The notes under the pieces were generated by a model, which searched no databases, was not told where the DNA came from, and saw nothing but the letters and a program-made list of their open reading frames with translations. The translations under genes were made by a program, and so were the position numbers. DNA of 64,000 nucleotides from positions 192,001 through 256,000 of the forward strand of contig CAWCTR010000004.1 in NCBI GenBank assembly GCA_963798485.1, written 5' to 3'. Below, piece after piece: positions 13,471 through 29,361 of this stretch; within the stretch, counting starts at the first letter, position 1; each line of letters starts with the position of its first letter. The stretch comes from an uncultured delta proteobacterium. GTDB lineage: Bacteria; Desulfobacterota; Desulfomonilia; UBA1062.

Positions 13471-14619
13471 ATGAGGGGTGTATTAATCTTGGTAATAGCC
13501 GTAGGGCTTATCTTTGCCGGTTCCGTTCCAGCACCGGCTGCTGAAAAGACGGTTGAAGAACGGATAAAGGCGTTAGAGGACACCATAGGCGTTTGGTCGT
13601 TCTATGGGAGTGCACGGTTTGCAACCTTTTATGAGAAATCAGATAGCAATGCCTTCAATGATACTGATGGCATTACGGATCTTAACGGACCTCACCAGAA
13701 AACAACAAGATGGGGTATAAGTGATTCATACGTAGGTGCAACGGCTACAAAAGGTGATTTCGGAGGCAAGATTGAGATCGAGTTTGAGGAAAATCAGACG
13801 CTTGAAACACGCTTGATGTATGGCACCTATACCTCTCATGATGTCATCCTTTTTCTGGGGCAGGATTATACACCACTTGGAGACTGGAGTTACAGCAACC
13901 AGGTATTTGCCGAAGACAACGCCATGCAAGGTTGGGGCATGATCTATGAAGACACCATTCCTCAACTTAAGCTTAAATGGAAGGGACTCCAGGTGGCATT
14001 TGTCGAAAATATGCGTGTGAATACCGCGGGCTTGAATGCATCAGACGTAAGGACCGAGATTGTGCTGCCGCATCTTGAGATGAAGTACCACTTTGAGGCG
14101 GATAAGTTCTTCGGTGATGTATTCGGCGGAGCCAATACCTATAAGGTCAAAGTGGCCAGTTTGAATATCGACAAGACCATAAATTCCTATGCACTGGGTG
14201 CCGGATGCGGAGTCACTATTGACCCGGTCTATGCAAACACGATGGTGTGGATGGCCCGCAACGGGATGCAGATGGGCCTGCACCAGGCTGATGCCCAGGG
14301 TGCCCAGATCGATCCTGAGACAGGCAGGCTCACCAATGACAATGATCTGGGATGGGTCTTCATCGTCGGCGCACATATCACCAAGGTGACCCTTGAGGCA
14401 GGGTATGGTTATGTAAAATCGAAACTTGATGCAAGCGGCGCCAGGAAAGATGATGCGCAGAACTGCTATCTGCAGGCTGTCATTCCTGTTGCACAGACGG
14501 ATTCAGCGAAATTCAGCCTCACCCCTGAAATAGGGGTTGTTGATTATAAGAGGGATTCGAAGGGTGACTATCAGGGAAAGGCGATATATGCAGGGGCCAG
14601 GTGGCAGATCGACTTCTAG
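13471..14619 (+). CDS. Outer-membrane porin-like beta-barrel protein
   Basis: Signal peptide, short coiled coil, SFYGSARF, amphipathic strands, C-terminal WQIDF. Confidence 0.75.
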   Translation: MRGVLILVIAVGLIFAGSVPAPAAEKTVEERIKALEDTIGVWSFYGSARFATFYEKSDSNAFNDTDGITDLNGPHQKTTRWGISDSYVGATATKGDFGGKIEIEFEENQTLETRLMYGTYTSHDVILFLGQDYTPLGDWSYSNQVFAEDNAMQGWGMIYEDTIPQLKLKWKGLQVAFVENMRVNTAGLNASDVRTEIVLPHLEMKYHFEADKFFGDVFGGANTYKVKVASLNIDKTINSYALGAGCGVTIDPVYANTMVWMARNGMQMGLHQADAQGAQIDPETGRLTNDNDLGWVFIVGAHITKVTLEAGYGYVKSKLDASGARKDDAQNCYLQAVIPVAQTDSAKFSLTPEIGVVDYKRDSKGDYQGKAIYAGARWQIDF

Positions 14620-14647
14620 AACTTCTTAATCGAGGGCACGGGCTCTC

Positions 14648-15064
14648 TTATTCGATGTCTTTGCCCGTGCTGGTCATGCTGAGAGCCCCGTGGCGCACGC
14701 CCTTGACTGACTTTAGGGCATTTGCAAGATTCTGCACTTTACTGGCTTTACTTTTTACAGCCACGATCTCCAGGCAGTTGTGATGGTCGAGGTGGATATG
14801 CTGGGTAGAGATGATGGTATCCTGGTGATCATGCTGGAGGTCTGTGAGCTGGCTTGACAGTCCACGGGTATGATGGTCGTAGATGAAGGTGATGGTTCCG
14901 GCAACTTCCTGGTCCTCCTCCCATTCCTTTTTGACCAGTTCCTGGCGGATAAGGTCTCGCAATGCCTCGGAACGGGTCGAATAACCCCTTTTGCCGATAA
15001 GCCGGTCGAATTTTTTGAGCAGACTGTCTTCAAGCGATACACCGAATCTCACGAGTTCTGACAT
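14648..15064 (-). CDS. nikR: Nickel-responsive regulator NikR, copy 1
   Basis: RFGVSL RHH, RSEALRDLIR, HIHLDHHNCLE. Confidence 0.96.
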   Translation of the reverse strand: MSELVRFGVSLEDSLLKKFDRLIGKRGYSTRSEALRDLIRQELVKKEWEEDQEVAGTITFIYDHHTRGLSSQLTDLQHDHQDTIISTQHIHLDHHNCLEIVAVKSKASKVQNLANALKSVKGVRHGALSMTSTGKDIE

Positions 15065-15193
15065 AACCCACCTATAGTTTATCTTTGCTGCATGGTGCCA
15101 CAGTGAGCAGGGGGAGTCAAACGCTATTCAAACCCAACTCATGCTTATGAAAACAGGTATCATCATCCGATAGAGAGAGAAGCAAACGAGGGC

Positions 15194-16684
15194 ATGAAAG
15201 GATCAACAAAGGCCATGTCTCCAGAGAATAGTGAGGATAGACGGCTGCAAATAAGGAGCGGGCTGTCATTGAGGACCAAGGGCCTGCTCTTGGCGGCTTT
15301 ACTCAATATAATCTCGACGATTATCTTCTCGGCATATTGCTATCAGATCCAGAAATCCTCTATTATGAGGGATATCGACGATAGGCTCCTTTCAAGCGCA
15401 CATGCAATCAGGTATCTTCTCCCCGAGGGATTCCATGGGAATATCAGCTCCGAGGCTTCCGTCTCCCCCAAAGAGTATGAGCGTAACCTGAGAAAGCTCT
15501 CGGAGTATGCAAGGTATGCCGGGGTGACCTATCTCTATACCATGATGGAGTCAGGGAATAAAATTGTATTCACCTCCACGAGCGCCACAACTGAGGAGTT
15601 CAAGAAGGGTACGTTTGATCATTTCTTTTCCGTCTGCGAAGATGCCTCCCCGAAGCTGAAACAGGTCTTTCGTGACCATAAGGTTTTCTTTGAAGAATCC
15701 CATGATAAATATGGAGACTACAGAACTCTCATCGTGCCGGTGATAATGCCTTCCGGAAAGGTCTATCTAATGGGGGCCGACCTCGACATCCGTTTTATCA
15801 AGGCCTTGCTAAACCAGGGTTTGTATCGCTCGCTCATGATAGGCGGCGTACTGTTCATACTAACCATGACTGTGTCTTTCCTTTTCCTCAGGCGGCTCAC
15901 AGGCCCCTTTATCACAAGGGATATTATAGCCGGGGTGATGGATTCATCCGGCAAAATCATAAAGACTTCCCAAGACCTTGTGGGTAACTGCGCCGAACTG
16001 GCCTCCTACGCCCAGGATCAAAACGAGGTAGTAAGTGAGACATCAAAGACCCTTGAAGACCTTGCCTTGGTTATCGGACAGGGCACTGAAGGTTCCGTAT
16101 CTGTTGAAACAGAGCTCAAGTCCTTCAATGATACCGTTTGCGCCCGGATGAGTCTTATCAATGAGATGAACGATTCCATGAAAGAGATCGACATATCGAG
16201 CGTTCAGATCGAAAAGATCATTGGTGTTATGAATGAGATTGCATTCCAGACAAACCTGCTTGAATTGAATGCCTCAGTAGAGGTTGACAGGGCGGGTAAT
16301 GCCGGGAAGGGCTTTTCTGTTGTGGCCGAAGAGGTGCGAAATCTTGCCCGCAAGACGGCCGAATCTTCACGGGACATAGAGCGGATTGTCCATAAGAACA
16401 TAAACGTCACCAGGAGGGGCCTGGAGTCTGTTATTGACACATCCGATTTCTTCCGGGTGATTATTGAGCGGATCAAGGAAATCGCCTCAAGGATATCTGA
16501 AATAACCGAAAGCAGCAAAGAACAGAGCGCCGGCATCGAATATATCAACGGGGCCATAGCAAGGACAAAGGATATACTTGAACACAATACCGACTTTGCA
16601 GGGATACTTTCTGAAAGCTCCAGGGAGCTCCAGGCGAGCGTGTCTTCTCTGGAGGAGATCCTAGAGCCTTTCAAGGGTAAATGA
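15194..16684 (+). CDS. Methyl-accepting chemotaxis protein with degenerate signalling tip
   Basis: Two TM helices, periplasmic domain, IAFQTNLLELNASVEVDRAGNAGKGFSVVAEEVRNLA. Confidence 0.88.
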   Translation: MKGSTKAMSPENSEDRRLQIRSGLSLRTKGLLLAALLNIISTIIFSAYCYQIQKSSIMRDIDDRLLSSAHAIRYLLPEGFHGNISSEASVSPKEYERNLRKLSEYARYAGVTYLYTMMESGNKIVFTSTSATTEEFKKGTFDHFFSVCEDASPKLKQVFRDHKVFFEESHDKYGDYRTLIVPVIMPSGKVYLMGADLDIRFIKALLNQGLYRSLMIGGVLFILTMTVSFLFLRRLTGPFITRDIIAGVMDSSGKIIKTSQDLVGNCAELASYAQDQNEVVSETSKTLEDLALVIGQGTEGSVSVETELKSFNDTVCARMSLINEMNDSMKEIDISSVQIEKIIGVMNEIAFQTNLLELNASVEVDRAGNAGKGFSVVAEEVRNLARKTAESSRDIERIVHKNINVTRRGLESVIDTSDFFRVIIERIKEIASRISEITESSKEQSAGIEYINGAIARTKDILEHNTDFAGILSESSRELQASVSSLEEILEPFKGK

Positions 16685-16772
16685 AGAATAGCCCTCTGAT
16701 CTTTTAAAAGAAATTGTGGTATCTTCTCTGGAGATCAAAAAGGGCACCATGAGGACATGGTGCTTGAATCCC

Positions 16773-17012
16773 TTAATCTCTCTTTGGGATTGTTTTCAAT
16801 CTGAGAAGATTAATTTCAGTCATGGGCTGATACTTTTTTATGAGCTCGCCAATGGCCTCATTCACCAAGAGTGACAGCTCTTTCCCCGTCAATGCGGAGA
16901 GTACGGTGAGCGCCCTTGCATGACCCTCTTCGATGTAGTAATTCCTTTTCACCAATACACCGGCCGGGTTATTTTTCCTTAATTCGAGTGGCTTTCTTCC
17001 TCTTTCCCCCAT
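16773..17012 (-). CDS. Small hypothetical, possibly ribbon-helix-helix protein
   Basis: KRNYYIEE strand followed by two helices (ELSLLVNEAI); RBS GAGAGGG. Confidence 0.5.
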   Translation of the reverse strand: MGERGRKPLELRKNNPAGVLVKRNYYIEEGHARALTVLSALTGKELSLLVNEAIGELIKKYQPMTEINLLRLKTIPKRD

Positions 17013-17119
17013 GCATCCCTCTCTGATAATTTATTTTACTGCTGGTTAATAATTACTTTTAATAATTTAACCAAGTTCATAACAAACCTTTTTACTCGTA
17101 AAGGGAATGGCTCAAAAAC

Positions 17120-17169
17120 TGGAGGCGGCAACCGGATTTGAACCGGTGAATAACGGTTTTGCAGACCGT
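17120..17169 (-). repeat. att site: 3' fragment of tRNA-Cys(GCA)
   Basis: Reverse strand ACGGT-CTGCAAA-ACCGT...CCGGTTCAAATCCGG...CCA; D-arm and 5' acceptor strand missing; abuts integrase. Confidence 0.9.
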
Positions 17170-17202
17170 ATATCTAACTTAATATCCTTTATAATCAATA
17201 TA

Positions 17203-18438
17203 TTAGTTATTGCCGCTAGAGACATTCTCTACCATATTTTCAGGTTTATTCTCTAGTAATTCTCTAGTAGGTTTTTTATCCAGCTCGTCTATATTACTCG
17301 TACTCATCTGGGGTATCCAGTGGTAGTAAGTCTTGTATGTGATCATTGGTGAGCTATGTCCCAACTCTTTTGATACCTCATGGATTGGATGTCCAATACT
17401 GAGTCTAAATGTTGCATAGCTGTGTCTCATGTCATGCGGGGTTCTGTGAGAGAGCTTTGATTTCTCCATGCAGAAATTCCATACACGATCAAGAAAATTG
17501 CCATAGTTAATCCTATTCCCTGTTTCCCCTATGAATACCAACTCTGGTGTTTTCTTCCAGCCCTTGCGCAATGTTTCTTCCTTAACAGCTGCAATCTGCT
17601 TATGTATGATGGCTTTAAGGTCGTTTGTCAAGCGCACTTTACGCCTACTCGATTCACTCTTGGGAGTAGTTTTTCTCCCCCTTGTAATATTGTTTCTCAC
17701 GCTGATATAGTTGTTGACAAAATCTATGTCTGATACTTTCAGCCCGATGATCTCGCCAATACGGAGGCCAGACCTAAATCCCATTGCCACAAGGGCATAA
17801 TATCTTGGCCTATGCTCCTTAACTTTAGATTCAAAAGTTGATCTATCTTCCCAGGTAAAAGGATTCATATCGTCATGGTTCTCATCAGGATTATCTTTGG
17901 GAATAATACTTCCATGAATGGGATTTGATTCAATATACTTGGGTACTGCGGATTCAAGTATGCCTGAAAGGCAATTTTTAATATTGGCAAGAGTATTGTA
18001 TTTTAGCCCCTTTGGCTTTAACTCTGAAAGCTCAAAGAGATAGTTTTCAAACTCTTCCTTGTCAAATTGATCAAGTGGCTTGTCTCCATACTTTGGTATA
18101 AGCCTCTGATTGATAAGATTCTCATACCCCTTATAGGTGCTGTATTTGAGGCGTTTCTTGTTTTTTATAAGCCAGCCTGGATTATCATCAAACCCATTTA
18201 GATATTGCTCGAGAGTGGGTGCCTGTGATTTGATCTCAAAGAGCCTGTTGAGAGCCTTATGTCCTTGCTCTTTGATCTTCTGATTGATTAGCTCTTTCTT
18301 CTGGTTTGCGATAACACGGTTTACCTTTGTGTTCTTGCCAACATGGATGTACTTTTTCTTGTATTGATGGCAGACCAATAAATATAATTCACCAGAGCCC
18401 TTCGGATGTTCAACAACGCTTACGCCCATTTTACGCAT
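17203..18438 (-). CDS. int: Tyrosine recombinase/integrase
   Basis: SGLRIGE, TPKS, HDMRHSYAT, LGHSSPMITYKTY catalytic motifs. Confidence 0.95.
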   Translation of the reverse strand: MRKMGVSVVEHPKGSGELYLLVCHQYKKKYIHVGKNTKVNRVIANQKKELINQKIKEQGHKALNRLFEIKSQAPTLEQYLNGFDDNPGWLIKNKKRLKYSTYKGYENLINQRLIPKYGDKPLDQFDKEEFENYLFELSELKPKGLKYNTLANIKNCLSGILESAVPKYIESNPIHGSIIPKDNPDENHDDMNPFTWEDRSTFESKVKEHRPRYYALVAMGFRSGLRIGEIIGLKVSDIDFVNNYISVRNNITRGRKTTPKSESSRRKVRLTNDLKAIIHKQIAAVKEETLRKGWKKTPELVFIGETGNRINYGNFLDRVWNFCMEKSKLSHRTPHDMRHSYATFRLSIGHPIHEVSKELGHSSPMITYKTYYHWIPQMSTSNIDELDKKPTRELLENKPENMVENVSSGNN

Positions 18439-18679
18439 TAAAAACGTCCTTCAAGATATTGTCAATCTTATTGTCTAAAACAGCTCCACCCTTTACTTCC
18501 CTGCTCTCAAGATATTCATCTATCCATTCCTTCTTGGTGACCATCTGTCCAAGGTCAGGCTTAGAGTATCGCATCAAGCCCCTTGCCCATAATTCACGGA
18601 TATACTTCTCGTTGATACCACCCGCATAGTCGGATGCTTGCTTTGCTGTGAGCCATACTGATGAGCTAAGGGAAGCCAA
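18431..18679 (-). CDS. Excisionase-like HTH protein
   Basis: WLTAKQASDY...KYIRELW...WIDEYL; overlaps the integrase start; TTG start with AAAGGAG RBS. Confidence 0.75.
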   Translation of the reverse strand: MASLSSSVWLTAKQASDYAGGINEKYIRELWARGLMRYSKPDLGQMVTKKEWIDEYLESREVKGGAVLDNKIDNILKDVFNA

Positions 18680-18829
18680 GTCTTTTTCTCCTTTGTCCTT
18701 AATAAATAAAAACCAACTTTTCCTCCCTTGCCCCTTTCACAAACGACTGAAGGGGAAGGGAGGAACGACCGGAGAAAGGAAAGCCTGGAAGGCTCACCAT
18801 ATAGAAGTGGTCTCATTTGAGACCACAGG

Positions 18830-18909
18830 AGACACCCGAAGCTCTGCAAGCAGCATGACAACATGCTCACATGTTGGCGTGCTGCTTTCGGAGCAAGCGG
18901 AGGGGGTCT
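18830..18909 (-). promoter_or_regulatory. Conserved upstream hairpin copy A (before xis-int)
   Basis: Sense strand AAGCAGCACGCCA-14nt-TGTCATGCTGCTTGCA. Confidence 0.65.
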
Positions 18910-19270
18910 TTTATATCCTGTGGTTTTCAGTCTTGGTTATTGGTTAGATATGAACCGATCTTCAAAAGAGTTACATTTCGCCAGTGCCATCTGTGGCGAT
19001 TTACTCTTTTTGAAGGTTTCATTTAAAAATCCCTACTCAGGGATTTGGCTATCTCTGCAAGCCAGCAGAACGCCCCTTCTGCTCGCCCTCTGCAATAATC
19101 ATCGTTCAACAATATTGCTGAAAGGGTTGGTACTTCATCATCGATTGGTATTGGAGTAAGATTACCATCGAGTTCATGCCTCAGAGCATCAGTTTTATTG
19201 ACAGGTTGAAAACTTGACAATATATATGGTTATGGCTATATGGATATGTATCCCCTAGGAGGTGATGTTC

Positions 19271-19507
19271 ATGCACCGAACAACTATCATGCTTCCGGAC
19301 GATCTCAAAGCAAAGGCAGAAGATGTGTCGAGGAAAAAGGGGTTTTCTCTGAGTGAATTTGTGAGAGAGGCGATGAAAGATATGCTGAAGAAGTATGAGG
19401 GCAGCAAAGGAGATTCTTTCTTCACAGATACAGTGGTATATACTGGGTCGGCACCCAAAGACATATCTAAAAATCATGATGATTATCTTTATGGAAGCAA
19501 GGCATGA
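19271..19507 (+). CDS. vapB: CopG/RHH antitoxin (VapB-like)
   Basis: MHRTTIMLPDDL...SLSEFVREAM; overlaps the PIN toxin; TTGACA promoter at 19214. Confidence 0.8.
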   Translation: MHRTTIMLPDDLKAKAEDVSRKKGFSLSEFVREAMKDMLKKYEGSKGDSFFTDTVVYTGSAPKDISKNHDDYLYGSKA

Positions 19508-19905
19508 TCTATATTGATACAGGAGCACTGATAGCAAGATATATTGCCAAGGACGATTATCACACTGAAGCAAAATCTAGCTGGAAAGCCCTTGAGAAGA
19601 ACAAAGACAGGCTCTTTACCAGTAACTTTGTTTTGGATGAAACGTTCACCCTTTTAGGCAGAAGGGCCGGATATAAATTTGCCGCCGAGAGAGCAAGAGC
19701 CATATATTCATCGGAGGCACTCACCATCTTAAGACCCGATAAATCAAACGAGCTTGAAGCACTACGTTTTTTCGAAAAATACTCAGACCAAATGGTAAGC
19801 TATACGGATTGCATTTCCTTTGCCTTAATGCGGGAACACAAGATTAAGAGGGTGTTTACTTTCGATAAGCATTTCGATCTGGCCGGGTTTCAAATAATAC
19901 CTTAG
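19504..19905 (+). CDS. vapC: PIN-domain toxin (VapC-like)
   Basis: IYIDTGA, VLDET, SYTDCISF, FTFDKHF. Confidence 0.9.
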   Translation: MIYIDTGALIARYIAKDDYHTEAKSSWKALEKNKDRLFTSNFVLDETFTLLGRRAGYKFAAERARAIYSSEALTILRPDKSNELEALRFFEKYSDQMVSYTDCISFALMREHKIKRVFTFDKHFDLAGFQIIP

Positions 19906-20139
19906 CATTTCCCAGTTCCAATAGATGATCTGGTTGCATTGGTCTCCTATGCAAATCGGGTCCATATATACCAACAAAGGATGCCCTGACTGCCATCAGA
20001 TTACTGTGATTGGAATACCCAGAACATTCTCAAGGCATTTCATAAAAGCTGGGACAATATTATTTTAATTGCACAATATTAACATCGGTTATGCACAGTA
20101 ACATCCATAATGTTAGTTAGCGAAATTTTCAAAATAAGC

Positions 20140-20213
20140 GCCCTCTCCGCTCGTCTTCTAAGCGTCCCGCCATGCTGATAAGCCTGTCATGCCGCTTGCA
20201 GCGCTGCAAGGGC
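20140..20213 (+). promoter_or_regulatory. Conserved upstream hairpin copy B (before DUF2958 gene)
   Basis: GCCCT...AAGCGTCCCGCCA-12nt-TGTCATGCCGCTTGCA...AGGGC. Confidence 0.65.
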
Positions 20214-20343
20214 TTCTTTAAGGAAGAAAATAAAACCTTCCTTTCTTTCGGTCGTTCCTCCCTCCCCCTTCAATCTCTGGTGAAAGGGGGAGGGAGGAAA
20301 AATTGTTTTTTACACACATCAGACCAAATCAAAGGAGGGCTTT

Positions 20344-20661
20344 ATGAAGCTTTTAACAGTTGAGTTGATCAATCAGTTTCCGAGGCTTTACGAGACCGAT
20401 GGTAAACCGAAGGACCAGGTGAAAATAGTCGCCAAGTTTTTTCACCCTATGTCCGCTGCCACTTGGTACGCAATCGAGTATGATCCGGAGGAAAGGATGT
20501 TCTTTGGCTTCGTGAATCTGGGTAATCCCTTGTACGCTGAACTGGGATATTTCTCTCTTGATGAACTTGAAAGTGTAAAGGTGATGGGACTCGGCATTGA
20601 GAGAGATCTGCATTACGGAGAGCATTACTTATCCGAGGTTCTTGAAAGTAAAAATATTTGA
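20344..20661 (+). CDS. DUF2958 family protein
   Basis: [11 protein letters not shown]...YDPE...[10 protein letters not shown]...IERDLHY. Confidence 0.85.
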
Positions 20662-20665
20662 TAAC

Positions 20666-20699
20666 GCCCGCGTCCGCCGGGCAACCGGCGGACGCGGGC
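20666..20699 (+). terminator. Strong GC hairpin (GCAA tetraloop) after DUF2958
   Basis: GCCCGCGTCCGCCGG-GCAA-CCGGCGGACGCGGGC, 15-bp perfect stem. Confidence 0.7.
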
Positions 20700-20762
20700 T
20701 TAAAAACATACAGGACGTATACCGAACAATTGAGTCTCCAAGACCTTTCATAAGCAATTCGC

Positions 20763-20836
20763 GCCCCTTTCTCTCGCTTTATAAGCATCGTGCCAACAAA
20801 AACACGTTGTCACGCTGCTTGCAACGTTCCAGGGGC
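20763..20836 (+). promoter_or_regulatory. Conserved upstream hairpin copy C (before ardC)
   Basis: GCCCCT...AAGCATCGTGCCA-12nt-TGTCACGCTGCTTGCA...AGGGGC. Confidence 0.65.
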
Positions 20837-20940
20837 TTTCTACAAGGAGGCTTCGCGGTCTTTTATCTCCGATTTTTCTCAACCCATGAATCAGGGGTGA
20901 ACGGGTTGAAAAAATTAATTTATTAGAGGAGGAAAGACCA

Positions 20941-21822
20941 ATGGCAAACGTATTCGAGATCGTGACTGAGCAGATTTTAAATCATTTATGTGCTGGTGTT
21001 ATCCCCTGGAGAAAACCCTGGACCAGCAAAATCCTGCTTCCCCTTAACCTGGTGACAGGCAAGAAGTATAGAGGCATCAATGTATGGTTGCTCCTTGCTT
21101 CCAGTTATGCCTCTCCCTACTGGCTCACCTTCAACCAGGTCAAGACCCTCGGGGGGACCATCAAGAAGGGTGAGAAAAGCTCTATCGTGGTTTTCTGGAA
21201 CTTCAAGGAAGTAGACGAGCTCAACGAGGCAACAGGTGCGATGGAAAAGAAAAATATACCTTTCTTGAAGTACTATCGGGTATTCAATGCCGTTCAGTGT
21301 GAAGGGATAACCTGCCCTGACCAGCCGGAAGAGGCTCACGCGGACCCCATAGCCGAAGCGGAGGCAATTATAGAAGGATACAAGGGAAGACCTGAAATAA
21401 AGCATGGTTTTGTCAAGGCATGCTATAATCTGGCAGAGGATCTGATAAAGATGCCCAACAAGGCTGCATTTGTGAACCAGGAAAATTATTTCAGTACCAT
21501 TTACCATGAGCTAACCCACGCCACTGGCGCAATATCCAGGCTCAACCGTGAAACACTCACGACACCAGCGGCTTTCGGATCGAAGAACTACGCAAGAGAA
21601 GAGCTTATAGCCGAGATGGGGGCTGCCTACCTGTGCGCGATCACCGGCATTGCCCATGCCACCATTGAGAACTCAGCGGCATATATTCAGGGATGGAGGG
21701 ACACTATCAGCAAGGACTCTAAGCTTGTCGTCCTGGCCGCAGCCCAAGCACAGAAGGCAGTCAATCACATCATCGGTCAGCAAGATGATGATTACCACGA
21801 GGATAAAGAGGGGCAGGGGTAA
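20941..21822 (+). CDS. ardC: ArdC family antirestriction/ssDNA-binding protein with zincin-like domain
   Basis: IPWRKPW, YRGIN, WLTFNQ, VFNAVQ, HELTHATG, YAREELIAE, YIQGW. Confidence 0.93.
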   Translation: MANVFEIVTEQILNHLCAGVIPWRKPWTSKILLPLNLVTGKKYRGINVWLLLASSYASPYWLTFNQVKTLGGTIKKGEKSSIVVFWNFKEVDELNEATGAMEKKNIPFLKYYRVFNAVQCEGITCPDQPEEAHADPIAEAEAIIEGYKGRPEIKHGFVKACYNLAEDLIKMPNKAAFVNQENYFSTIYHELTHATGAISRLNRETLTTPAAFGSKNYAREELIAEMGAAYLCAITGIAHATIENSAAYIQGWRDTISKDSKLVVLAAAQAQKAVNHIIGQQDDDYHEDKEGQG

Positions 21823-21981
21823 TATCCTGCCCCCCGGGCCGCCGGGCTTCGCCCGGTTTATGGGAAAACTGAACAACCAGGGAAAAAATCCCCATAGGAT
21901 TTTTATCAATAGGCCTTTATCATACCGTCACATGCCGGTAAATCTTGGAGGGAATACCGGCATGTGACACGAGGAGGGTTG

Positions 21982-22254
21982 TCATTTTACGGCATCCTTT
22001 AAAGCTTTCCCAGCCTTGAATCTTGGGGTCTTGCTGGCTTTGATCTTTATCTTCTGTCTGGTCTGTGGGTTCACGCCCTCACGGGCCGCTCGATTGGCCA
22101 CATCAAAAGTACCGAACCCTACCAAGGTGACCTTGTCGCCTTTCTTGACTGCGCCCTGAATCGCATCCGTAAGTGCATCGATTGCTTCTGAGACTTTTGC
22201 CTTTGGGAGTCCTGCTTTGTTAGAAACTACATCAACCAATTCAGTTTTCGTCAT
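21982..22254 (-). CDS. hup: HU family DNA-binding protein (copy 2)
   Basis: MTKTELV...GDKVTLVGFGTF...REGVNPQT...RFKAGKALKD. Confidence 0.94.
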   Translation of the reverse strand: MTKTELVDVVSNKAGLPKAKVSEAIDALTDAIQGAVKKGDKVTLVGFGTFDVANRAAREGVNPQTRQKIKIKASKTPRFKAGKALKDAVK

Positions 22255-22700
22255 GATAGATCCTCCTCATTTATATACCGGCATCCTTGCTGTAGGCTGA
22301 CCGGTTTGTATTTCTGAATATATCGATAGCGAAAAGATGTCATCTGTTTCTTTCAACTGATGAGATGGGGTCAATACCCTGTTATTGATTATCGATTTAT
22401 CATTATGATGATATCAATAACGATATTTCGCGAGTTTGCCTTCTATACAGCTTCACTGGAGCAAGCCCTAAATGATAATCGCCTGGACAGGAGGATTGTT
22501 TTTCCCGACCAGGCGATGAAGATATGAAATTAAGTTTATGGCTTGATCTTTTATTTGGGGTAAATCTCTTCTCGCCTTAATGGGCCATGCGGCTGTGTCA
22601 TTTGAACAAGAACCTACGGTTGTGTCATTTTTTAATTCTTAACTGTAGGTTCTTGTACGCTCGCTCCCGCTAGTCAACTAGGGTCGTTTCTTCGTTGGGC

Positions 22701-22934
22701 TCATTTTGGTTTTTTGCTATCTGCCGCAGCTTTCTTACTTCCCTTTTCCACCACATCTTTAGAAACTGTTTTTGCTGAGGAAGCCTTTTTTGCCTTAACT
22801 GAAACGGCAGGCGCAAGCCTGGAATGCACTATCTTTTCAGCTTCCAACCAATGCTCTATTTCACGGCCAGAAACGCAGCCACCCTTCTCATAAAGCTCAT
22901 AAGCAGTTTTCTCGATCTCTTGCCTCTTGTCCAT
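22701..22934 (-). CDS. DUF2934 family protein
   Basis: IEKTAYELYEK.G...GREIEHWLEAE with a Lys/Ala-rich tail; AGGAGG RBS. Confidence 0.8.
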   Translation of the reverse strand: MDKRQEIEKTAYELYEKGGCVSGREIEHWLEAEKIVHSRLAPAVSVKAKKASSAKTVSKDVVEKGSKKAAADSKKPK

Positions 22935-22949
22935 TTGAAAACCTCCTTT

Positions 22950-23180
22950 TCATAAAATTACTGTCCTAGATCCTTCCATCCGCTTTCTCTCAATCCATTG
23001 AAGTGCATCCTGAGGACTGTCAAACTCCTTCCCCGTATTCTCTTCTTTTCCGTCCTTATCAACCAACGCTAGATATTTATCTCCGGACAAACCTTTCTGC
23101 TTCCGGATATGCCCTATGAGCTTGTCATCATCGTAGACATGAAAAGTGGAACCACCATCACGAGAGTTTAATGCGATCAT
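22950..23180 (-). CDS. Hypothetical protein
   Basis: Compact ORF with AAGGGA RBS upstream of DUF2934. Confidence 0.55.
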   Translation of the reverse strand: MIALNSRDGGSTFHVYDDDKLIGHIRKQKGLSGDKYLALVDKDGKEENTGKEFDSPQDALQWIERKRMEGSRTVIL

Positions 23181-23787
23181 TATTTCCCTTTCAGCAGAAT
23201 ATCTATCTGCTCTGCATTGCATCAATCACGTACCTGGGCGCAATGTGCCTGAGATACCTGTTCGTAGGCTGCAGGGACATATGCCCACTCATTTGACATG
23301 ACCTTCTGAAATATTAACAGTAGGTTTCCAGATTCTCCAAACAACCTGTTTCTATAAGAATAGACGAAACTAAAGAACAGACGATACAGAAACAAGGCAA
23401 ATAATTCTACCATTGCAGCAATCCCGTACACCGTCTGGAAAAGATAATGATAAGACGATGAGAGATTTTGCTGGTGTTGGGTTGAGATCTTTTTCATATT
23501 TTAGGTTCTGCTACCTATGTCTTTATAAAGGGAATTGGATTCATCCGTGATTTTCATATGCTCGTCAAGGCCGCTTCTTCAAAGAGTCGGCATAGTTTTG
23601 CTGATTTCAGCTCGTGAGAGTAACACAATGAAGAACTCATCCATCTCATCGATCTTCTGATTCTGTTGATCAAGAATGGTTTCGTGACTCTCCTTGCGGA
23701 AGTATATCTCCTGCATGTCACTGATCAGGGCAGATCTTATATCTTACCGTATAATCTCACTCACCTGAGACGATAATTCCTGCTCAT

Positions 23788-24051
23788 TCATGAGGCATCA
23801 CCCTTTGGTGGTAGGTTAAAGAGAGCCCGGTCAATATCACGGACAAGGAAGCCGTCTATAAGCTTTACCAGTTCATCTTCTTTGTCTTTGTACTTCACAT
23901 CCAGGAAGTAAGCGCCCACAAGGATCTTCTTCCGAGTGTCCTCGGCCCGTTCCTTCTTCTTCACGCGGGATTTAGCGCTGGCAATCTGTTGTTCGAGCTT
24001 TTCTTTTTTCTGCAGAAGTTTACTGAGAGAATCTGATTTTTTCGGTTGCAT
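23788..24051 (-). CDS. Relaxosome accessory mobilization protein (MobC/MobS/TraD-like)
   Basis: KKERAEDTRKKILVGA...DRALFNL; divergent from the relaxase across oriT. Confidence 0.8.
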   Translation of the reverse strand: MQPKKSDSLSKLLQKKEKLEQQIASAKSRVKKKERAEDTRKKILVGAYFLDVKYKDKEDELVKLIDGFLVRDIDRALFNLPPKGDAS

Positions 24052-24230
24052 TCTGCCCTCACTAGTATTAAATTCATAACAGTTTGATATGTAATACCTT
24101 ATGAGAGGTTAGAAGTCAATGATAAGAAAACCAACGCCCTCCTTTACAACTCGGACGCGAAATTTACGAACGAACCGTAAGGACTAAAACCAACGTGAGA
24201 ATGAGCACTGAGCTAAAACTGAGTGAAGCG

Positions 24231-24267
24231 AAAGGCGCACATACATGTCGCAAGCGACATATGCGCT
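24231..24267 (-). other. MOBQ-type oriT
   Basis: Bottom strand has inverted repeat ATGTCGC-TT-GCGACAT then TATGTGCG^CCT, resembling the RSF1010 nic TAAGTGCG^CCCT. Confidence 0.75.
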
Positions 24268-24296
24268 TAGTGCAGAAGCTGAGGAAGTGGCAATAA

Positions 24297-27215
24297 ATGG
24301 CGTGTTATCATATCCAGGTTAAAATAATCAGCAGAGGAGGAGGCAAATGCGCCATCTCCGCCGCCGCATACCGCTCGCGGGATAAACTCTATGATGAACG
24401 CCTGGACATGACATTCGATTATACGAAGAAGAAGGACCTCGCCTATGAAGAGATCCTCCTTCCGGAAAACGCACCGGAAAGACTGAAAGACCGGCAGACT
24501 CTCTGGAATGAAGTTGAAAGAGTCGAGAAGAGAAAAGACGCACGCCTCTCCCGGGAAGTCGAGTTAGCTCTTCCCAAAGAGTTAAACTTCGAACAACAGG
24601 TAGCTCTCGTAAAAGAATATGCACAGTCCCAATTCGTGGATAAAGGCATGATAGCCGACATCTGCATTCACAAGAGCGATAAAAATCCTCATGTTCATAT
24701 CATGCTTACCACAAGAGAAGTCACCAGGGATGGCTTCGGGAAAAAAGTAACCGCCTGGAATGATAAAGCAGAACTACTGAAATGGCGGGAAGAGTGGGCG
24801 AATATCCAGAACAGGAAATTGCTGGAAGCAGGTCATGATATCCAGGTTGACCATAGGAGCTTTGCAGATAGAGGCATTGACCTTGAGCCTACATCGAAGA
24901 TCGGGATCGCAGCAAAATACCTGCCCAAAGGCTACCTCCATCTGCAAGAAACCCGAGGACTTGATCGCCTCGAAGAGTACCAGAGGATATGCAGAGAGAA
25001 TGGGGAACGGATTATCAACGATCCGGCAAAAGCCTTGAAGCTTGTTGGGCATTACGATGCAGTATTCAAGCGGGAAGACATCATGGATTTTGCTTTCCGG
25101 CACAGTGCGGATGCAGATCAGTTCAACCGGGTTTTCTCTGCCCTTGAGAACAGTCCCGAGCTTATCAAGATCGGGAAGAACGAGAAGGGAGAAGACCTGT
25201 TCTCCACCCGAACCATGATGATAAGCGAGAAGACCATGCTCGATAATGCAAGGGCTATGAAATCTTCAAACGAACACGTCCTGGAGCAGGCTATCATCAA
25301 CCAGACAGCGAAGAACTACACCATGAGCGAGGAGCAGGAAAAGGCATTCAGAAACATTGCAGAGGGCGGCGATATCTCCGTCATGATCGGTCGTGCGGGA
25401 ACAGGAAAAAGCTATACTCTCGGAGCTGTCAAAGAAGCATATGAAGCAGGAGGATATCGGGTAAGAGGCCTTGCACTTTCAGGCATCGCAGCAGAGGGAC
25501 TTCAGAATGAAAGCGGCATCGAAAGCACAACCATCTTCAGGCAGTTGGATGACTGGGAAAATGAGAGAAATGTACTGAGCAAAGACCTGATCCTGGTGAT
25601 AGATGAAGCCGGTATGGTTGGCACCCGGCAGATGCATAAGATCTTGGAACAAGCCCATGAAGTAGGATCAAAAGTGATCCTTGTGGGAGACAATGAACAG
25701 CTTCAGTCAATCGAGGCAGGAGGATCATTCAGAGGTATCATCCAGAGAACCGGATACGTGGAACTTGCAGAAGTGAGAAGACAACATATCGATTGGCAGA
25801 AACAGGCAACCGTAGAATTCTCCGGCAACAAAGAACAATCAGAGAAAGCCCTGGAAATGTACCACGACCATGGTCATATCCATGAACTCCAGACCAGGCA
25901 GGATGCCAAGGATAAGATGCTCAAAGAGTGGGCGGATCAACAACAACTCTCAAAACAGAAACACGAAACCAGCCTCATGATGGCTTACACGAATAGGGAT
26001 GTAAATGAACTGAACCAGGGGGCGAGAGAACACAGAAAAATGCACGGAGAACTTCGAGGCTACGAACACACATTCATGACAGAAAAAGGAGAGAGAAAAT
26101 TCTGCACCGGAGACAGGATTATCTTCCTCAGGAATGAGCATTCTTTAGGAGTAAGAAATGGTTCTCTCGGCACAGTAGAGATCATCAACCGGGGAGCCAT
26201 ATCCGTCAAACTCGATAAAGGAGACAGAGTCGCTATCGATACTTCCATGTACAAAGATTTCGATCACGGTTATGCAGCCACCGTGCATAAAACTCAAGGC
26301 TCAACCCTTGACCATACCTTTGTGCTCGGCTCACGTCATTTTGATAAGCATACAGCGTACGTTGCCATGAGCAGACAGAGAGAGAATGTGACCATGTACT
26401 ATGGCAAGGATGAGTTCAGGAATTTTGAAGACCTGCAGAGGGTCATGAGCAGAGAACGGCCTAAGAGTCTGGTCGTGGATTATGGGCTACCGAGAGGCAT
26501 TGAGGTAGATAACAGAGTCATCGAGGCTGAGAAAGTTCTGACTCATGAAGAAAGACGCATCCAGGCCCAGGAATGGCAACAGCAAAGAGACCAGGAACAG
26601 TATGTCAAACAAATGAAGGAAAGGGGCATTCAAGTTGAATTCCCCAAGGATAAATCTGTATCCGGATATTTTGAGAGAGTGAAAGAAGTCGGAGGTAAGA
26701 GTTATGCTGTTATCGATACGCACGCCAATCCGACTAAGGGAATTCGTTACCTGATACCCTACGAGAAGCAATACGATCAAATGCAGAGGCACCACTATGT
26801 AGCCTATGATGGGAAGGAAATGGGATATGCTAAAAAGAGCAGAACTCCTGAGAAGGAAATACAACAGCAAGTTTCTCAGGAGAAGCAGGGAGAAAAAGGC
26901 ATATCGACACCTGACCGGAAGCTTACTCCGGAAGAATTTAATTACTGCCAGCGAATGCAGGATAGAGGGCTTAAGGTTGACTTTCCAAGAGAAAGTGCTG
27001 TGGAAGGCTATTACACAAAAATAGAAGAACTCGGCGGCAATAAATATGCAGTGATTGAATCGAAGGGTGTTCGCTACATGGTGTCCTATGACAAGCAATA
27101 CGATCAGATGCAGATGCACCGGTATGTTTCATATGACGGGCAAACGATACATTCTGCAAAGGCCCCCTCGATAAAAATAGAAAAAAATCAGGGGCTGGAA
27201 CTTGGAAAGAAGTAA
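24297..27215 (+). CDS. traA: Ti-type TraA relaxase-helicase (MobA/MobL + RecD-like helicase)
   Basis: SAAAYRS, NPHVHIMLTTR, GRAGTGKS, VIDEAGMV, LVGDNEQL, YAATVHKTQG. Confidence 0.95.
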   Translation: MACYHIQVKIISRGGGKCAISAAAYRSRDKLYDERLDMTFDYTKKKDLAYEEILLPENAPERLKDRQTLWNEVERVEKRKDARLSREVELALPKELNFEQQVALVKEYAQSQFVDKGMIADICIHKSDKNPHVHIMLTTREVTRDGFGKKVTAWNDKAELLKWREEWANIQNRKLLEAGHDIQVDHRSFADRGIDLEPTSKIGIAAKYLPKGYLHLQETRGLDRLEEYQRICRENGERIINDPAKALKLVGHYDAVFKREDIMDFAFRHSADADQFNRVFSALENSPELIKIGKNEKGEDLFSTRTMMISEKTMLDNARAMKSSNEHVLEQAIINQTAKNYTMSEEQEKAFRNIAEGGDISVMIGRAGTGKSYTLGAVKEAYEAGGYRVRGLALSGIAAEGLQNESGIESTTIFRQLDDWENERNVLSKDLILVIDEAGMVGTRQMHKILEQAHEVGSKVILVGDNEQLQSIEAGGSFRGIIQRTGYVELAEVRRQHIDWQKQATVEFSGNKEQSEKALEMYHDHGHIHELQTRQDAKDKMLKEWADQQQLSKQKHETSLMMAYTNRDVNELNQGAREHRKMHGELRGYEHTFMTEKGERKFCTGDRIIFLRNEHSLGVRNGSLGTVEIINRGAISVKLDKGDRVAIDTSMYKDFDHGYAATVHKTQGSTLDHTFVLGSRHFDKHTAYVAMSRQRENVTMYYGKDEFRNFEDLQRVMSRERPKSLVVDYGLPRGIEVDNRVIEAEKVLTHEERRIQAQEWQQQRDQEQYVKQMKERGIQVEFPKDKSVSGYFERVKEVGGKSYAVIDTHANPTKGIRYLIPYEKQYDQMQRHHYVAYDGKEMGYAKKSRTPEKEIQQQVSQEKQGEKGISTPDRKLTPEEFNYCQRMQDRGLKVDFPRESAVEGYYTKIEELGGNKYAVIESKGVRYMVSYDKQYDQMQMHRYVSYDGQTIHSAKAPSIKIEKNQGLELGKK

Positions 27216-27325
27216 GTCGGAGAGGTTTAACTGAAGATCGTATCTGGTGGCACAAGATCATCACTTTCTCCGGGCTTTTGGAAGCGATGATTTTATTGCA
27301 TAATTTTCATTATATTTATTAGGAG

Positions 27326-27354
27326 CATTCGTGAATAAGTTTTGAAACACGTTC
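27326..27354. repeat. 29-bp direct repeat, copy 1 (copy 2 at 45320-45348)
   Basis: CATTCGTGAATAAGTTTTGAAACACGTTC exact at both positions. Confidence 0.85.
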
Positions 27355-27547
27355 AAGTAAAAGTAATCAACCATTGAAGAATTGGTTATATGAAAGTCCT
27401 ATATAGGACTCTTATGAAGCTGGGGACAAACACCAGTATAGTTTATGTCTTACATTTCAATAACTTTTTGTAAAATTCTGATTTTTCTCGATTATTACTA
27501 GGGTCTTCCTAGAGACAATCTGGTGAAAGTTATGTATAGGACCATGC

Positions 27548-28156
27548 ATGAAACATCGGATATCTCTCTGTGCCAGTGTGATATGTTTCGCATTTTTTCT
27601 TTTTGTGCCCTTCGCATGGTCCCATCCCCATGTCTTTCTTGATGCCACTGCGAGGATGGTCTTTGATAATAAAGGACTTGCAGGGTTCCGTATCCAGTGG
27701 GTTTTCGATGAAATGTTCAGCAGCATGATCATCCTTGATTTCGACAAGAACGGAACTGGACGTTTTGATCCTCAGGAGATGGCACGTTTGCAGAAAGACG
27801 TCTTCATGAAGCTGCGGGATCTCGACTTCTTCACCCATATCAAGATAGACGGAAAGGCCTTCAAGATAAGCTCCGTAAATGATTTCACCGCTGAAATCAG
27901 AGACGGCACAGTGGTCTACCGTTTCTTTGTACCTTGCCATGTTCCAGCGAGTGGTTCGTTCCACGAGGTGAAGCTGTCCCTCTATGACCTGTCGTACTAT
28001 CACAGTGTGACCCTGGGAAAAGATCCCGTCACCTATGAAAACAATCTCTTGTATGATATAACCCAGCGAATCGAAACGAACAAGAATGAGGCATATTATT
28101 ACGACCAGATCTATCCAGAAGAGATCACACTGAGGTTCAGGAAAAAAAATGGTTAG
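27548..28156 (+). CDS. DUF1007 family periplasmic metal-binding protein
   Basis: Signal peptide, HPHVF, WVFDEMFS. Confidence 0.85.
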   Translation: MKHRISLCASVICFAFFLFVPFAWSHPHVFLDATARMVFDNKGLAGFRIQWVFDEMFSSMIILDFDKNGTGRFDPQEMARLQKDVFMKLRDLDFFTHIKIDGKAFKISSVNDFTAEIRDGTVVYRFFVPCHVPASGSFHEVKLSLYDLSYYHSVTLGKDPVTYENNLLYDITQRIETNKNEAYYYDQIYPEEITLRFRKKNG

Positions 28157-29048
28157 GCCTGTCATCTACCTGCTGTGCCTCATTTTCCTGATCCTGTCGG
28201 TTCAGCAGGGCATGGCCAGGTACCCTTTTCATCATCCCGGGGCCACTGAACAGCTTGTCTCCAGCAATTCGCCTCAGAGTTCATTTTTAGAGACGATCAT
28301 CCACTGGCAACAGCAACTAAAGGAGAAGATGGTACCCATGATCCGGGGCGCCAGAACAACGCATAATGTCGGACCGCTGCTGGTGGCATTCATGATAGCC
28401 TTCGTATACGGTGTTCTCCACGCGGCTGGTCCCGGACACGGCAAGGTGGTGACGATGTCGTACGTCCTGTCAAGGAACGCATCCATGGTTAGTGGGCTTT
28501 TGTTTGGGACCTTGACCGCTTTTTCCCATGGATTTTCTGCTGTGATCTGCGTCTTTGGGATACGATACGTTCTTCAGAAAGGATTTTTTGGGACATTCGA
28601 GACTATTTCCCACACAACACAGATCGTGAGTTTCAGCCTCATTGCCCTTATCGGGTTTGGTATACTCCTAAAGAGCGGCTATTCGCTGTTCGGTAAGGCC
28701 GGACAAGGGGCAAGACTCGATGAAATAAAACCGGCTGAACCTAAAAGGGCATTCGTGCCATGGGCCGTTACAATAGGCTTGGTGCCCTGTCCTGCGGTAG
28801 TGATGGTACTCCTCTTCTGTCTTTCCATGAACATGCTGTCCCTCGGTATTCTCTTGGCCGGATTCATCTCTCTCGGTATGGCATGCACGATCTCAGCAGT
28901 GGTCATTGCAGTAATCATGGGGAAGGATTTCTCTCTGAACAGGTTCCCGGAGAAACGGGTGAAAACGGTTGAAGGAATCCTTAGTATGGGCTCAGGGATA
29001 GCGATGATGGCCCTTGGGCTGCTCTTTCTCGGTGCGGTCATAGTGTGA
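28149..29048 (+). CDS. Ni/Co transporter (NicO/RcnA/HoxN-like)
   Basis: YGVLHAAGPGHGK, GLVPCP. Confidence 0.88.
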   Translation: MVRPVIYLLCLIFLILSVQQGMARYPFHHPGATEQLVSSNSPQSSFLETIIHWQQQLKEKMVPMIRGARTTHNVGPLLVAFMIAFVYGVLHAAGPGHGKVVTMSYVLSRNASMVSGLLFGTLTAFSHGFSAVICVFGIRYVLQKGFFGTFETISHTTQIVSFSLIALIGFGILLKSGYSLFGKAGQGARLDEIKPAEPKRAFVPWAVTIGLVPCPAVVMVLLFCLSMNMLSLGILLAGFISLGMACTISAVVIAVIMGKDFSLNRFPEKRVKTVEGILSMGSGIAMMALGLLFLGAVIV

Positions 29049-29361
29049 AACCGATGCCGGATAATACGACAGGGTTGCATACATACCCGCCCAGGATAAG
29101 ACGTCGAGGATGAAAACCCCTGAACAGAGGGCGGTGATAGCCCGACATATGGCCCCTCATTGCAGGAGGGTTGGGGTTAGGCCAATAGCTATATATCCCT
29201 CAAGGTATTCCTGATCGATCTAACCGTTAGATTATGCCATGTGTCACAATGCTGAGCTGGTCCGATCTTTTCATATATCTTATGTCGATATCACCAGTTT
29301 TAGGCATTTCAAAAGCACTCATCTATGGAAGATTATATACTGATAGCTTCTGACTGGTGGA

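Follow-up and report, generated by a model that had tools for sequence, protein, structure and literature searches.

The 64,000-nucleotide (nt) stretch analysed here, hereafter the window (positions 192,001 to 256,000 of contig CAWCTR010000004.1, from an uncultured delta proteobacterium), carries what is, to judge from its genes, a small integrative mobilisable element, in which three related DNA hairpins stand 5' of a xis-like open reading frame (ORF) followed by the integrase gene, of a DUF2958 gene, and of ardC. A previous sequence-only reading of the window had proposed that these hairpins are split sigma54-like promoters that become complete only in single-stranded DNA (ssDNA). The three-hairpin observation is real and far broader than three copies: the hairpin, its preference for one strand, the conserved asymmetry of its arms, and its gene context are all observed in a family of homologous elements. 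The cassettes headed by these hairpins are likely to be ssDNA-dependent hairpin promoters, and a sigma54 reader is plausible and the best candidate. Taken as a whole, portable cassettes with a sigma54-type promoter made by an ssDNA fold are the best explanation, one that we favour tentatively and rate at slightly less than an even chance.

As for the three copies, the gene-proximal arm of each hairpin contains the motif TGTCAYG-N4-TTGCA, with exact matches at 18845-18860 on the minus strand, and at 20185-20200 and 20808-20823 on the plus strand; with one mismatch allowed, there were four matches against 0.62 expected, a count reached in 1 of 100 shuffles. The three sites belong to homologous hairpins, copies of one element of about 86 nt, located at 18826-18914 (copy A, minus strand), 20134-20219 (copy B, plus strand), and 20757-20842 (copy C, plus strand), and they precede the xis-like ORF with the integrase, the DUF2958 gene, and ardC, respectively, as had been read from the sequence. 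Copy A represents the X class (xis-int copies) and points to the xis-like gene; it matched the covariance model described below with 89.3 bits, and its best-folding strand is the plus strand, the template, with a DNA fold of -28.2 kcal/mol (z -6.4) against -20.7 for the sense strand. Copies B and C represent the L class (ardC-side copies), with model matches of 94.2 and 97.3 bits, respectively; copy B folds on the minus (template) strand with -20.3 kcal/mol, and the hairpin is absent from the minimum free energy (MFE) structure of its sense strand, and copy C folds on the minus strand as well, with -18.8 kcal/mol for the template and -13.6 for the sense strand. If a sigma54-type start applies, the proximal arms of copies A, B, and C predict transcription starts at about 18834, 20211, and 20834, respectively.

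A covariance model was built from the three window copies and then used for searching genomes, which defined family 1, with 38 distinct copies, 11 of them in the host genome. The order yielded carriers of this element in 6 of 52 genomes and the class in 7 of 122, and every carrier falls within a single taxonomic family; the model gave no match in the 70 genomes of the other family of the class, nor in 150 other genomes sampled from the phylum. The genes found downstream encode ArdC, DUF2958, DUF4942, proteins of 160-183 and of 189 amino acids (aa), and a xis-like helix-turn-helix (HTH) protein followed by the integrase. On metagenome contigs, the hairpin was upstream of the gene in 7 of 7 loci with ArdC relatives of at least 64% identity, and none of the 73 metagenome loci with ArdC relatives of 52% identity or less matched model R2. 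A search of the genome collection with the pattern CGYTGCAAGCNNNRTGACA was unspecific, with a true hairpin in 2 of 80 loci among the matches listed (L044 and L056); cassette C had no blastn match in the plasmid collection, and Rfam models run over 14000-30000 gave only chance-level matches to miRNA and lncRNA families, with E values up to 1.

Regarding the fold, standard pairs occupied 90.7% of the alignment cells of the 38 copies, against 29-45% when the partners were slid, and compensatory changes occurred in 15 of the 27 pairs, with none of 500 shuffles reaching the observed values; as the alignment was fitted to the model, these pairing figures lean towards the structure. The basal stem that had been proposed is real, having compensatory changes in all six of its pairs. 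Plain folding with DNA parameters offers a check that is independent of the model-fitted alignment, and when both strands were folded in this way the template strand, antisense to the gene, was the more stable one in 38 of 38 copies, with a mean of -18.75 against -13.58 kcal/mol; likewise, G.T cells outnumbered A.C cells by 66 to 9 in 29 copies. Covariation and template-strand preference together argue that the element is selected as a fold of the template strand, rather than as a protein operator or a sense RNA.

In the upper stem, the template arm is the complement of TGTCAYG-NNGC-TT, and the top, non-template arm reads TGGCRNG-NNGC-TT. The distal arm of the window copies, taken on the other strand, has the three forms TGGCGTG, TGGCGGG, and TGGCACG, with one mismatch at the same base in every copy; this mismatch is an A.G, in which the second G of TGGC faces an invariant A of the template, and its flanking pairs are invariant throughout the 38 copies. 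The conserved asymmetry extends from the window to the whole family: each of the 38 copies carries GT in place of GG on its sense side, with TGGC on the other arm. Directly after GCTT, the top arm contains a bulge of 5 nt in 29 copies, 6 nt in four, and 4 nt in one, as counted in the 34 of 38 copies that could be parsed, the other four being left out of the count. Past the bulge, a conserved GC(G/A)AG pairs with TGC of the template, and it is followed, in the MFE folds and in the consensus, by a 2x1 loop, two base pairs (one of which covaries), a 3x3 loop, and the 6-bp basal stem; the loops of the L-class hairpins measure 7-14 nt, and their stems hold several mismatches. Two features of the first description need correction at this point: the 10-15 nt bubble that was thought to be largely unpaired is mostly paired in both the MFE folds and the consensus, and the -12 element of the distal arm (TTTC, TTAG, or TTAT) is broken, as stated, in the linear sequence but not in the fold: its GC has been displaced by the bulge rather than lost, and TT^GC is restored when the hairpin forms.

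Each hairpin heads a promoter-leader cassette of about 200 nt, with two to four copies per element; it lies about 90-150 nt 5' of the start codon, and each copy has its own conserved leader and ribosome-binding site (RBS). The leader is homologous in all the cassette types and consists of a second hairpin, an A-run, TTG, a T-run, and the RBS; the stems of the second hairpin differ between gene types and yet stay paired, that is, they covary, and its loop ends in TTGTGAA. In the window, the leader of cassette A spans 18680-18825 on the minus strand, with the second hairpin at about 18722-18763 and then the A-run/TTG/T-run and the RBS; the second hairpin of cassette B is at 20257-20297 on the plus strand (CCTCCCTCCCCC...GGGGGAGGGAGG, then AAAAATTGTTTTTT) and that of cassette C at 20877-20909 on the plus strand (CTCAACCC...GGGTTGA, with flanking T-run and A-run). 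This second hairpin has no strand bias (22 G.T against 19 A.C), and its interpretation as an intrinsic terminator was rejected because the T-run begins 8-9 nt past the stem and strand bias is missing.

Part of these data could be accommodated by an element that works at the RNA level, part of an antisense RNA or of a 5' untranslated region, through which the cassette genes would be regulated in their translation or stability. Any promoter situated upstream would have the hairpin between itself and the gene, a second conserved hairpin is present in the leader, and the better-folding strand is the antisense one, which recalls FinP-type control. However, no sigma70-like promoter for an antisense RNA was found, the L-class copies have no T-run after the hairpin on the template strand, a sense RNA would carry A.C mismatches, and there was no Rfam match; in addition, the conserved unpaired A.G and the bulge resemble features recognised by proteins, and we regard control at the RNA level as very improbable.

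As for the likeness to sigma54 promoters, the host has one rpoN gene, whose product contains the AID, CBD, and DBD domains, and more than 20 genes for sigma54 activators; rpoN was present in 5 of 5 carrier genomes checked, namely, the host and four others. The host genome contains 37 exact TGGCAY-N5-TTGCW sites, 35 of them distinct, and its consensus is therefore canonical. Scored on a matrix that was built from these sites and is partly circular owing to its fixed core, the gene-proximal arms had a mean of 8.1 bits, within the top 1e-4 of the 28-mers of the genome, and would score 14.2 bits if GG were present. The top strand passed from -4.0 to +3.6 bits once the bulge was left out, and removal of 5 nt at the true position of the bulge gave the best score of the 16 offsets compared. 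Variation is absent or nearly so at the positions of TGGC, TT, and GC, and the pairs in the spacer covary. In linear DNA, GG is found on the sense arm of none of the 38 copies, and a break of 4-6 nt is present in the other arm of all the 34 that were parsed.

A sigma70 reading of the same letters was rejected. No sigma70-like -35/-10 pair occurs in or beside the three hairpins, on either strand, and a scan of 18600-21000 gave three sigma70-like matches, all away from the hairpins, against 4.2 expected; the -35-like TTGGCR or TTGTCA has no -10-like hexamer at 16-18 nt on either arm, and TTGGCR is followed at that distance by GCGGAG or GAGAAA (by eye).

Further information came from an ArdC homologue of 54% identity in another order, which has a diverged copy of the whole cassette. 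When this sister cassette was used in a DNA search, 14 of the 96 genomes from that order contained matches, 34 in total. Model R2 does not detect this sister family, which was reached through the ArdC homologue and the DNA search that followed. Its downstream genes encode ArdC, a 137-aa protein that is RadC/JAB-like by eye, a 69-aa protein, and excisionase-like HTH proteins. The sister family keeps CATGAC in the template opposite GGCGTG in the top strand, hence the same A.G mismatch, and it has the same preference for the template strand (28 G.T against 4 A.C); loops of its X-class copies exceed 20 nt. Its top arm has the form [C/T]GGC-N9-[G/T]TGC and lacks a bulge, and the top strand has GG-N10-GC, the sigma54 spacing, in 12 of the 14 parsed copies, two of the sister copies even reading TGGCAGGTGGCTTGCG and TGGCAGGTGACTTGCG, with the canonical TGGCA-N6-TTGC. 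In the gene-proximal sense arm, instead, that spacing occurs in 1 of 14 copies, and it is longer by one or two (mostly one) in 12 of 14. The retention of GG-N10-GC on the top strand indicates that it is the distal arm that holds the -24/-12 geometry across the two families, which fits a folded promoter pointing into the gene and contradicts the sense arm as a promoter in duplex DNA. Two statements of the sequence-only reading are restricted to part of the material: the exact sigma54 spacing of the gene-proximal arm is true of the three window copies and not of the sister family (1 of 14), and the lack of a complete promoter on either strand of double-stranded DNA (dsDNA) applies to family 1, the GG-N10-GC motif being complete on the linear top strand in 12 of 14 sister copies.

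That last figure, together with the wide use of sigma54 in the host and the fact that the sense arm is only one base off the host consensus, speaks for an ordinary regulatory region of dsDNA, either a weak or unusual sigma54 promoter (TGTCAY-N5-TTGCA) with an inverted repeat upstream that a regulator binds, or a distal-arm promoter that fires away from the gene. Nevertheless, a duplex promoter does not account for the persistence of the GT defect through all 38 copies and through 12 of the 14 sister copies parsed, for a loop that varies from about 4 to more than 25 nt, for G.T pairs that favour one strand, or for the extra one or two positions in the sense-arm spacing of 12 of 14 sister copies; were the stem a protein operator, it would have no need to covary between copies within one genome. 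The distal arm of family 1, for its part, is broken up by 4-6 nt, and a promoter pointing away from the gene would make only antisense RNA to the preceding gene. On balance, the duplex explanation is improbable.

A different matter is whether the hairpin is a single-strand signal read by something other than sigma54, i.e., by the sigma70 holoenzyme or core RNA polymerase through its shape, or as a priming site for primase or the primosome, with the sigma54-like letters retained through common ancestry or because some other protein needs them. Both the hairpin and the strand preference, which are solid, suit this possibility, and the main group of the sister family matches the sigma54 matrix weakly; besides, the occurrence of hairpins on either strand would be in keeping with priming of the two strands, and in IncQ plasmids ssiA and ssiB lie on opposite strands. 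The presence of two to four copies per element, each with leader, RBS, and gene, is promoter-like and not origin-like, a sigma70 reader would find no -10 at 16-18 nt from the -35-like TTGGCR, and the occurrence of GG and GC one helical turn apart in two diverged families, along with the two canonical copies, would be left unexplained. In favour of priming, Frpo/ssp hairpins also prime and stall DNA synthesis, according to bioRxiv 10.64898/2026.01.09.698686. We consider a reader other than sigma54 somewhat unlikely.

Under the explanation preferred here, the core of the cassette would be the imperfect hairpin of about 86 nt that forms on the template strand when this is single-stranded, and whose folding would give a single duplex with the appearance of a gene-directed sigma54 promoter. 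In this duplex, TGGC at -24 would come from the distal (non-template) arm, with its second G opposite the invariant A of the template; once the 4-6-nt bulge of that arm is looped out, base pairing between the template and the conserved GC would re-form TTGC at -12, at a distance of one helical turn, and the region from about -11 to +3 would be weakly paired, with 3 bp, the 2x1 loop, 2 bp, the 3x3 loop, and the 6-bp stem. In duplex DNA, the arm that faces the gene would offer GT and not GG, and the other arm would be interrupted by the bulge sequence and point away from the gene; with both arms defective, the promoter should be off. The ardC-side cassettes, which serve ardC, DUF2958, DUF4942, and other genes, would then act like Frpo/ssp and give early expression from the incoming strand, with the sigma54 holoenzyme in place of sigma70 as reader, and the mismatch, the bulge, and the weak pairing might relieve the requirement for an activator.

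With regard to this last step, Region I of sigma54 blocks opening (PMC4551910, PMC5095919), and activator-independent sigma54 transcription in vitro is favoured by destruction of the repressive fork junction near -12 together with pre-opened DNA (PMC4551910). The distortions of the present fold fall at precisely these sites. A literature search returned no paper linking ssDNA promoters with sigma54 or RpoN, and a broader one listed none that mentions ssDNA promoters.

Several points weigh against the sigma54 fold, in addition to the fitted alignment and the partly circular matrix mentioned above. The region downstream of -12 is partly paired, and thus there is no free bubble; the pairs that restore GC at -12 are invariant, and covariation cannot prove them. 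The sigma54 spacing is missing from the top strand in 2 of 14 parsed sister copies, and the main sister group, CGGCGTG-N4-GTGCA, scores -1.6 bits on the host matrix (p about 3e-3 per position). Family 1 is narrow, being confined to one family and 7 of 122 class genomes, and many of its copies are recent relatives. The sigma54 of the host has a normal activator-interacting domain, no sigma54 activator gene was seen among the element ORFs scanned, and bypass of the activator is rare in vivo, according to PMC4551910. The last of these points concerns the strands: the X-class copies are opposite in strand to the ardC-side copies in 9 of 9 elements, the window included, so that X and L cannot both be switched on from a single transferred strand. 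Confidence remains limited because of this conflict over the xis-int copies and because of the activator question.

The orientation of the copies deserves to be considered in some depth. The L-class copies are co-oriented with the relaxase gene in 15 of 15 cases, plus two more located about 30 kb from a relaxase, and the relaxase lies by convention in the lagging region (PMC11541004); if this convention applies, the leading region would contain the L copies, and the transferred strand would serve as their template, as it does for Frpo. The leading-region reading fits the ardC-side copies and does not fit the xis-int copies, although the latter have the same fold, template-strand preference, and leader as the L copies. 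Two ways around this problem were discarded: cruciform extrusion from duplex DNA is unlikely given the L loops of 7-14 nt, the mismatches, and the sister X loops of more than 20 nt, and a replication fork that starts from an origin placed between the divergent copies would leave the wrong strands exposed (on reasoning only). Possibly, the donor reads its retained strand as the transferred one departs, or both strands are single-stranded during replication of the excised element. It is also possible, by analogy with what bioRxiv 10.64898/2026.01.09.698686 shows for an F ssp, that the X hairpin on the transferred strand acts as a barrier or a primer.

The most far-reaching combination of these proposals is that the cassettes are the first natural sigma54 promoters existing only as folded ssDNA, that wild-type sigma54 can start on them without an enhancer-binding ATPase thanks to the -24 mismatch, the -13 bulge, and the weak pairing around the start, and that the transferred strand is read in the recipient and the retained or displaced strand in the donor, so that different gene sets would be switched on in the two cells; such a joint scenario is doubtful and is put forward with low confidence.

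Turning to the element as a whole, a tRNA-like fragment (17131-17185, minus strand; positions 9-63 of the Rfam tRNA model, 32.5 bits) adjoins the integrase gene; ARAGORN does not call it, and a second copy of its 3' part is absent from the window. This fragment is likely to be the remnant of an attachment site. The tyrosine integrase (17203-18438, minus strand; Phage_integrase, E 5.5e-20) is preceded by the small xis-like ORF of 82 aa with a TTG start (18431-18679, minus strand), which had no match in a Pfam search; a homologue of this ORF (L015:1739-1984) has a weak match to HTH_17, with E 0.03. On the other side of copy A, the DUF2958 gene is at 20344-20661 on the plus strand (PF11171, E 3.4e-16), and at its 3' end a GC-rich inverted repeat (20655-20710, plus strand), whose 26-nt arms have 81% complementarity, resembles a terminator, so that each cassette gene appears to be its own transcription unit. 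The ardC gene (20941-21822, plus strand) encodes an ArdcN domain and a zincin-like metallopeptidase domain (PF08401, 1.2e-32; PF18818, 1.5e-34).

Between ArdC and the relaxase there are five small genes on the minus strand, one of them HU-like, and metal-transport genes lie downstream of the relaxase. The relaxase with its helicase part (MobA_MobL and AAA_30) is encoded at 24297-27215 on the plus strand (PF03389, 1.5e-71; PF13604, 4e-55), and the 87-aa gene at 23788-24051 on the minus strand is divergent from it. The region between these two genes, 24052-24296, is a candidate origin of transfer (oriT): in an alignment of four relaxase upstream regions, an inverted repeat at about 24236-24268, 30-60 nt 5' of the relaxase start, was kept in 4 of 4, and the differences between the elements (the window and G000:C24, C4 at 158 kb, and C7) leave its arms complementary. 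The region 24052-24296 is likely to be the oriT, with the 87-aa gene as accessory gene. No type IV secretion genes were found among the element ORFs scanned.

The tyrosine integrase and the relaxase close by raise the possibility that the hairpins themselves are recombination or transfer sites, that is, attC-like sites for a tyrosine recombinase or an extra oriT/nic hairpin. Indeed, attC sites are imperfect single-strand hairpins with conserved extrahelical bases, and the basal stem often reads GCGCCCT, which resembles the IncQ-type nic core. Both versions were rejected: the hairpins are 5' of genes, with fixed orientation and a leader, rather than 3' of cassettes; GTTG/CAAC boxes occupy the apex instead of the base; the basal stem covaries, so there is no fixed nic sequence; and a separate conserved inverted repeat stands directly 5' of the relaxase. 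A role in recombination or transfer is accordingly rated as remote.

Other features were noted in and around the element. An operon for a ribbon-helix-helix (RHH) antitoxin and a PIN toxin, at 19262-19905, sits between the divergent hairpins as cargo of the element; its promoter, TTGACA-N17-TATATA at 19190-19218 (by eye), indicates that sigma70 promoters of the host look ordinary. A perfect 14-nt inverted repeat is present at 21927-21968, between ardC and the HU-like gene (GTCACATGCCGGTA / TACCGGCATGTGAC, 14 nt apart). The 3' part of the relaxase gene contains a 78-nt direct repeat (26736-26813 and 27063-27140, 78% identity, 327 nt apart), which suggests an internal duplication of the C-terminal module of the relaxase. 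Downstream of the element, among metabolic genes, there is a gene for an insertion sequence-type DDE transposase (DDE_Tnp_1 and DUF772) at 36014-37051. The host genome has at least five more related elements or remnants (G000:C4:155-162 kb, C8:1-5.4 kb, C24:17.7-22.9 kb, C7:628-635 kb, and C8:118.5-120 kb); several of them are decayed, with a fragmented relaxase, a frameshifted ardC with an in-frame TGA, or a truncated accessory gene, and one locus has two relaxase genes in tandem.

As for the more distant ArdC relatives, these carry other upstream elements, some of which are plain TTGACA...TATAAT-like promoters (by eye). A long GC-rich fold-back (…CGTCCTCACCCGCCCGC…GCGGGC…GGTGAAGGACGACAGAC), unrelated in sequence to family 1, lies 5' of ArdC homologues of about 50% identity in the metagenome loci L169, L176, L177, L182, L196, L208, L209, and L227; TGGC is not invariant in this class (by eye), which may be a different single-strand signal of the leading region.

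In terms of significance, ssDNA promoters are, to our knowledge, known from a handful of enterobacterial plasmids and are all described as sigma70-type. If experiments confirm the present proposal, the cassettes would be a new kind of ssDNA promoter; the trick would have been reinvented with another sigma family, in elements of anaerobic Desulfobacterota, and it would provide a natural test of whether wild-type sigma54 ever works without its ATPase activator. A sigma54-type version would also give a covariance-model signature with which leading regions and early genes could be recognised outside the model organisms; on the basis of their link to the cassettes, the 160-183-aa, 189-aa, and 69-aa proteins, DUF4942, and DUF2958 are likely to be establishment or anti-defence genes. 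Finally, the xis-int copies on the opposite strand raise the question of when the other strand of the element is single-stranded.

It is useful to compare these cassettes with systems already described. With canonical sigma54 promoters they would share, in the proposed fold, TGGC and TTGC placed one helical turn apart; they differ in that no linear strand of family 1 has GG and GC at the right spacing, and in that no enhancer or activator is evident. The fold also recalls the early- and late-melted heteroduplex promoters, artificially pre-opened templates used in vitro to study activator bypass (PMC4551910, PMC5095919), since it is mismatched near -24, bulged near -13, and weakly paired from -11 to +3; unlike in those, the distortion here is a bulge upstream of GC and not a fork just downstream, and wild-type sigma54 is reported to remain activator-dependent on pre-opened DNA.

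Hairpins are also used as promoters by the virion RNA polymerase of phage N4, a single-subunit enzyme, and there, too, a template-strand DNA hairpin is the promoter; the N4 hairpins differ in being tiny (5-7 bp) and extruded from supercoiled duplex DNA with single-stranded DNA-binding protein, and in serving a phage polymerase. The single-strand origins of rolling-circle plasmids and the IncQ sites ssiA and ssiB are folded ssDNA signals read by RNA polymerase or primase, and ssiA and ssiB, being on opposite strands, resemble the X and L classes in this respect; unlike the present hairpins, which occur in two to four copies per element and are coupled to genes, such origins occur once or twice per replicon, with no downstream gene, leader, or RBS.

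The closest parallels are those with the Frpo/ssi/ssp elements found in leading regions on F and IncI1 plasmids, whose hairpins drive early genes from ssDNA (PMC11541004 and bioRxiv 10.64898/2026.01.09.698686). The known ones are sigma70-type, with -35/-10 (and UP) elements in the stem, according to PMC11541004, whereas here the letters fit the -24/-12 of sigma54 and no sigma70 pair was found; moreover, the present hairpin is much shorter, at about 86 nt, and it is also found before xis-int, on the other strand. In both cases, however, long imperfect hairpins lie on the template strand of establishment or anti-restriction genes, several are present per element, each 5' of a gene, and the proposed logic is the same, on when single-stranded and off when double-stranded; the L copies, which are located on the side of the candidate oriT away from the relaxase and are co-oriented with it, share this arrangement, too.

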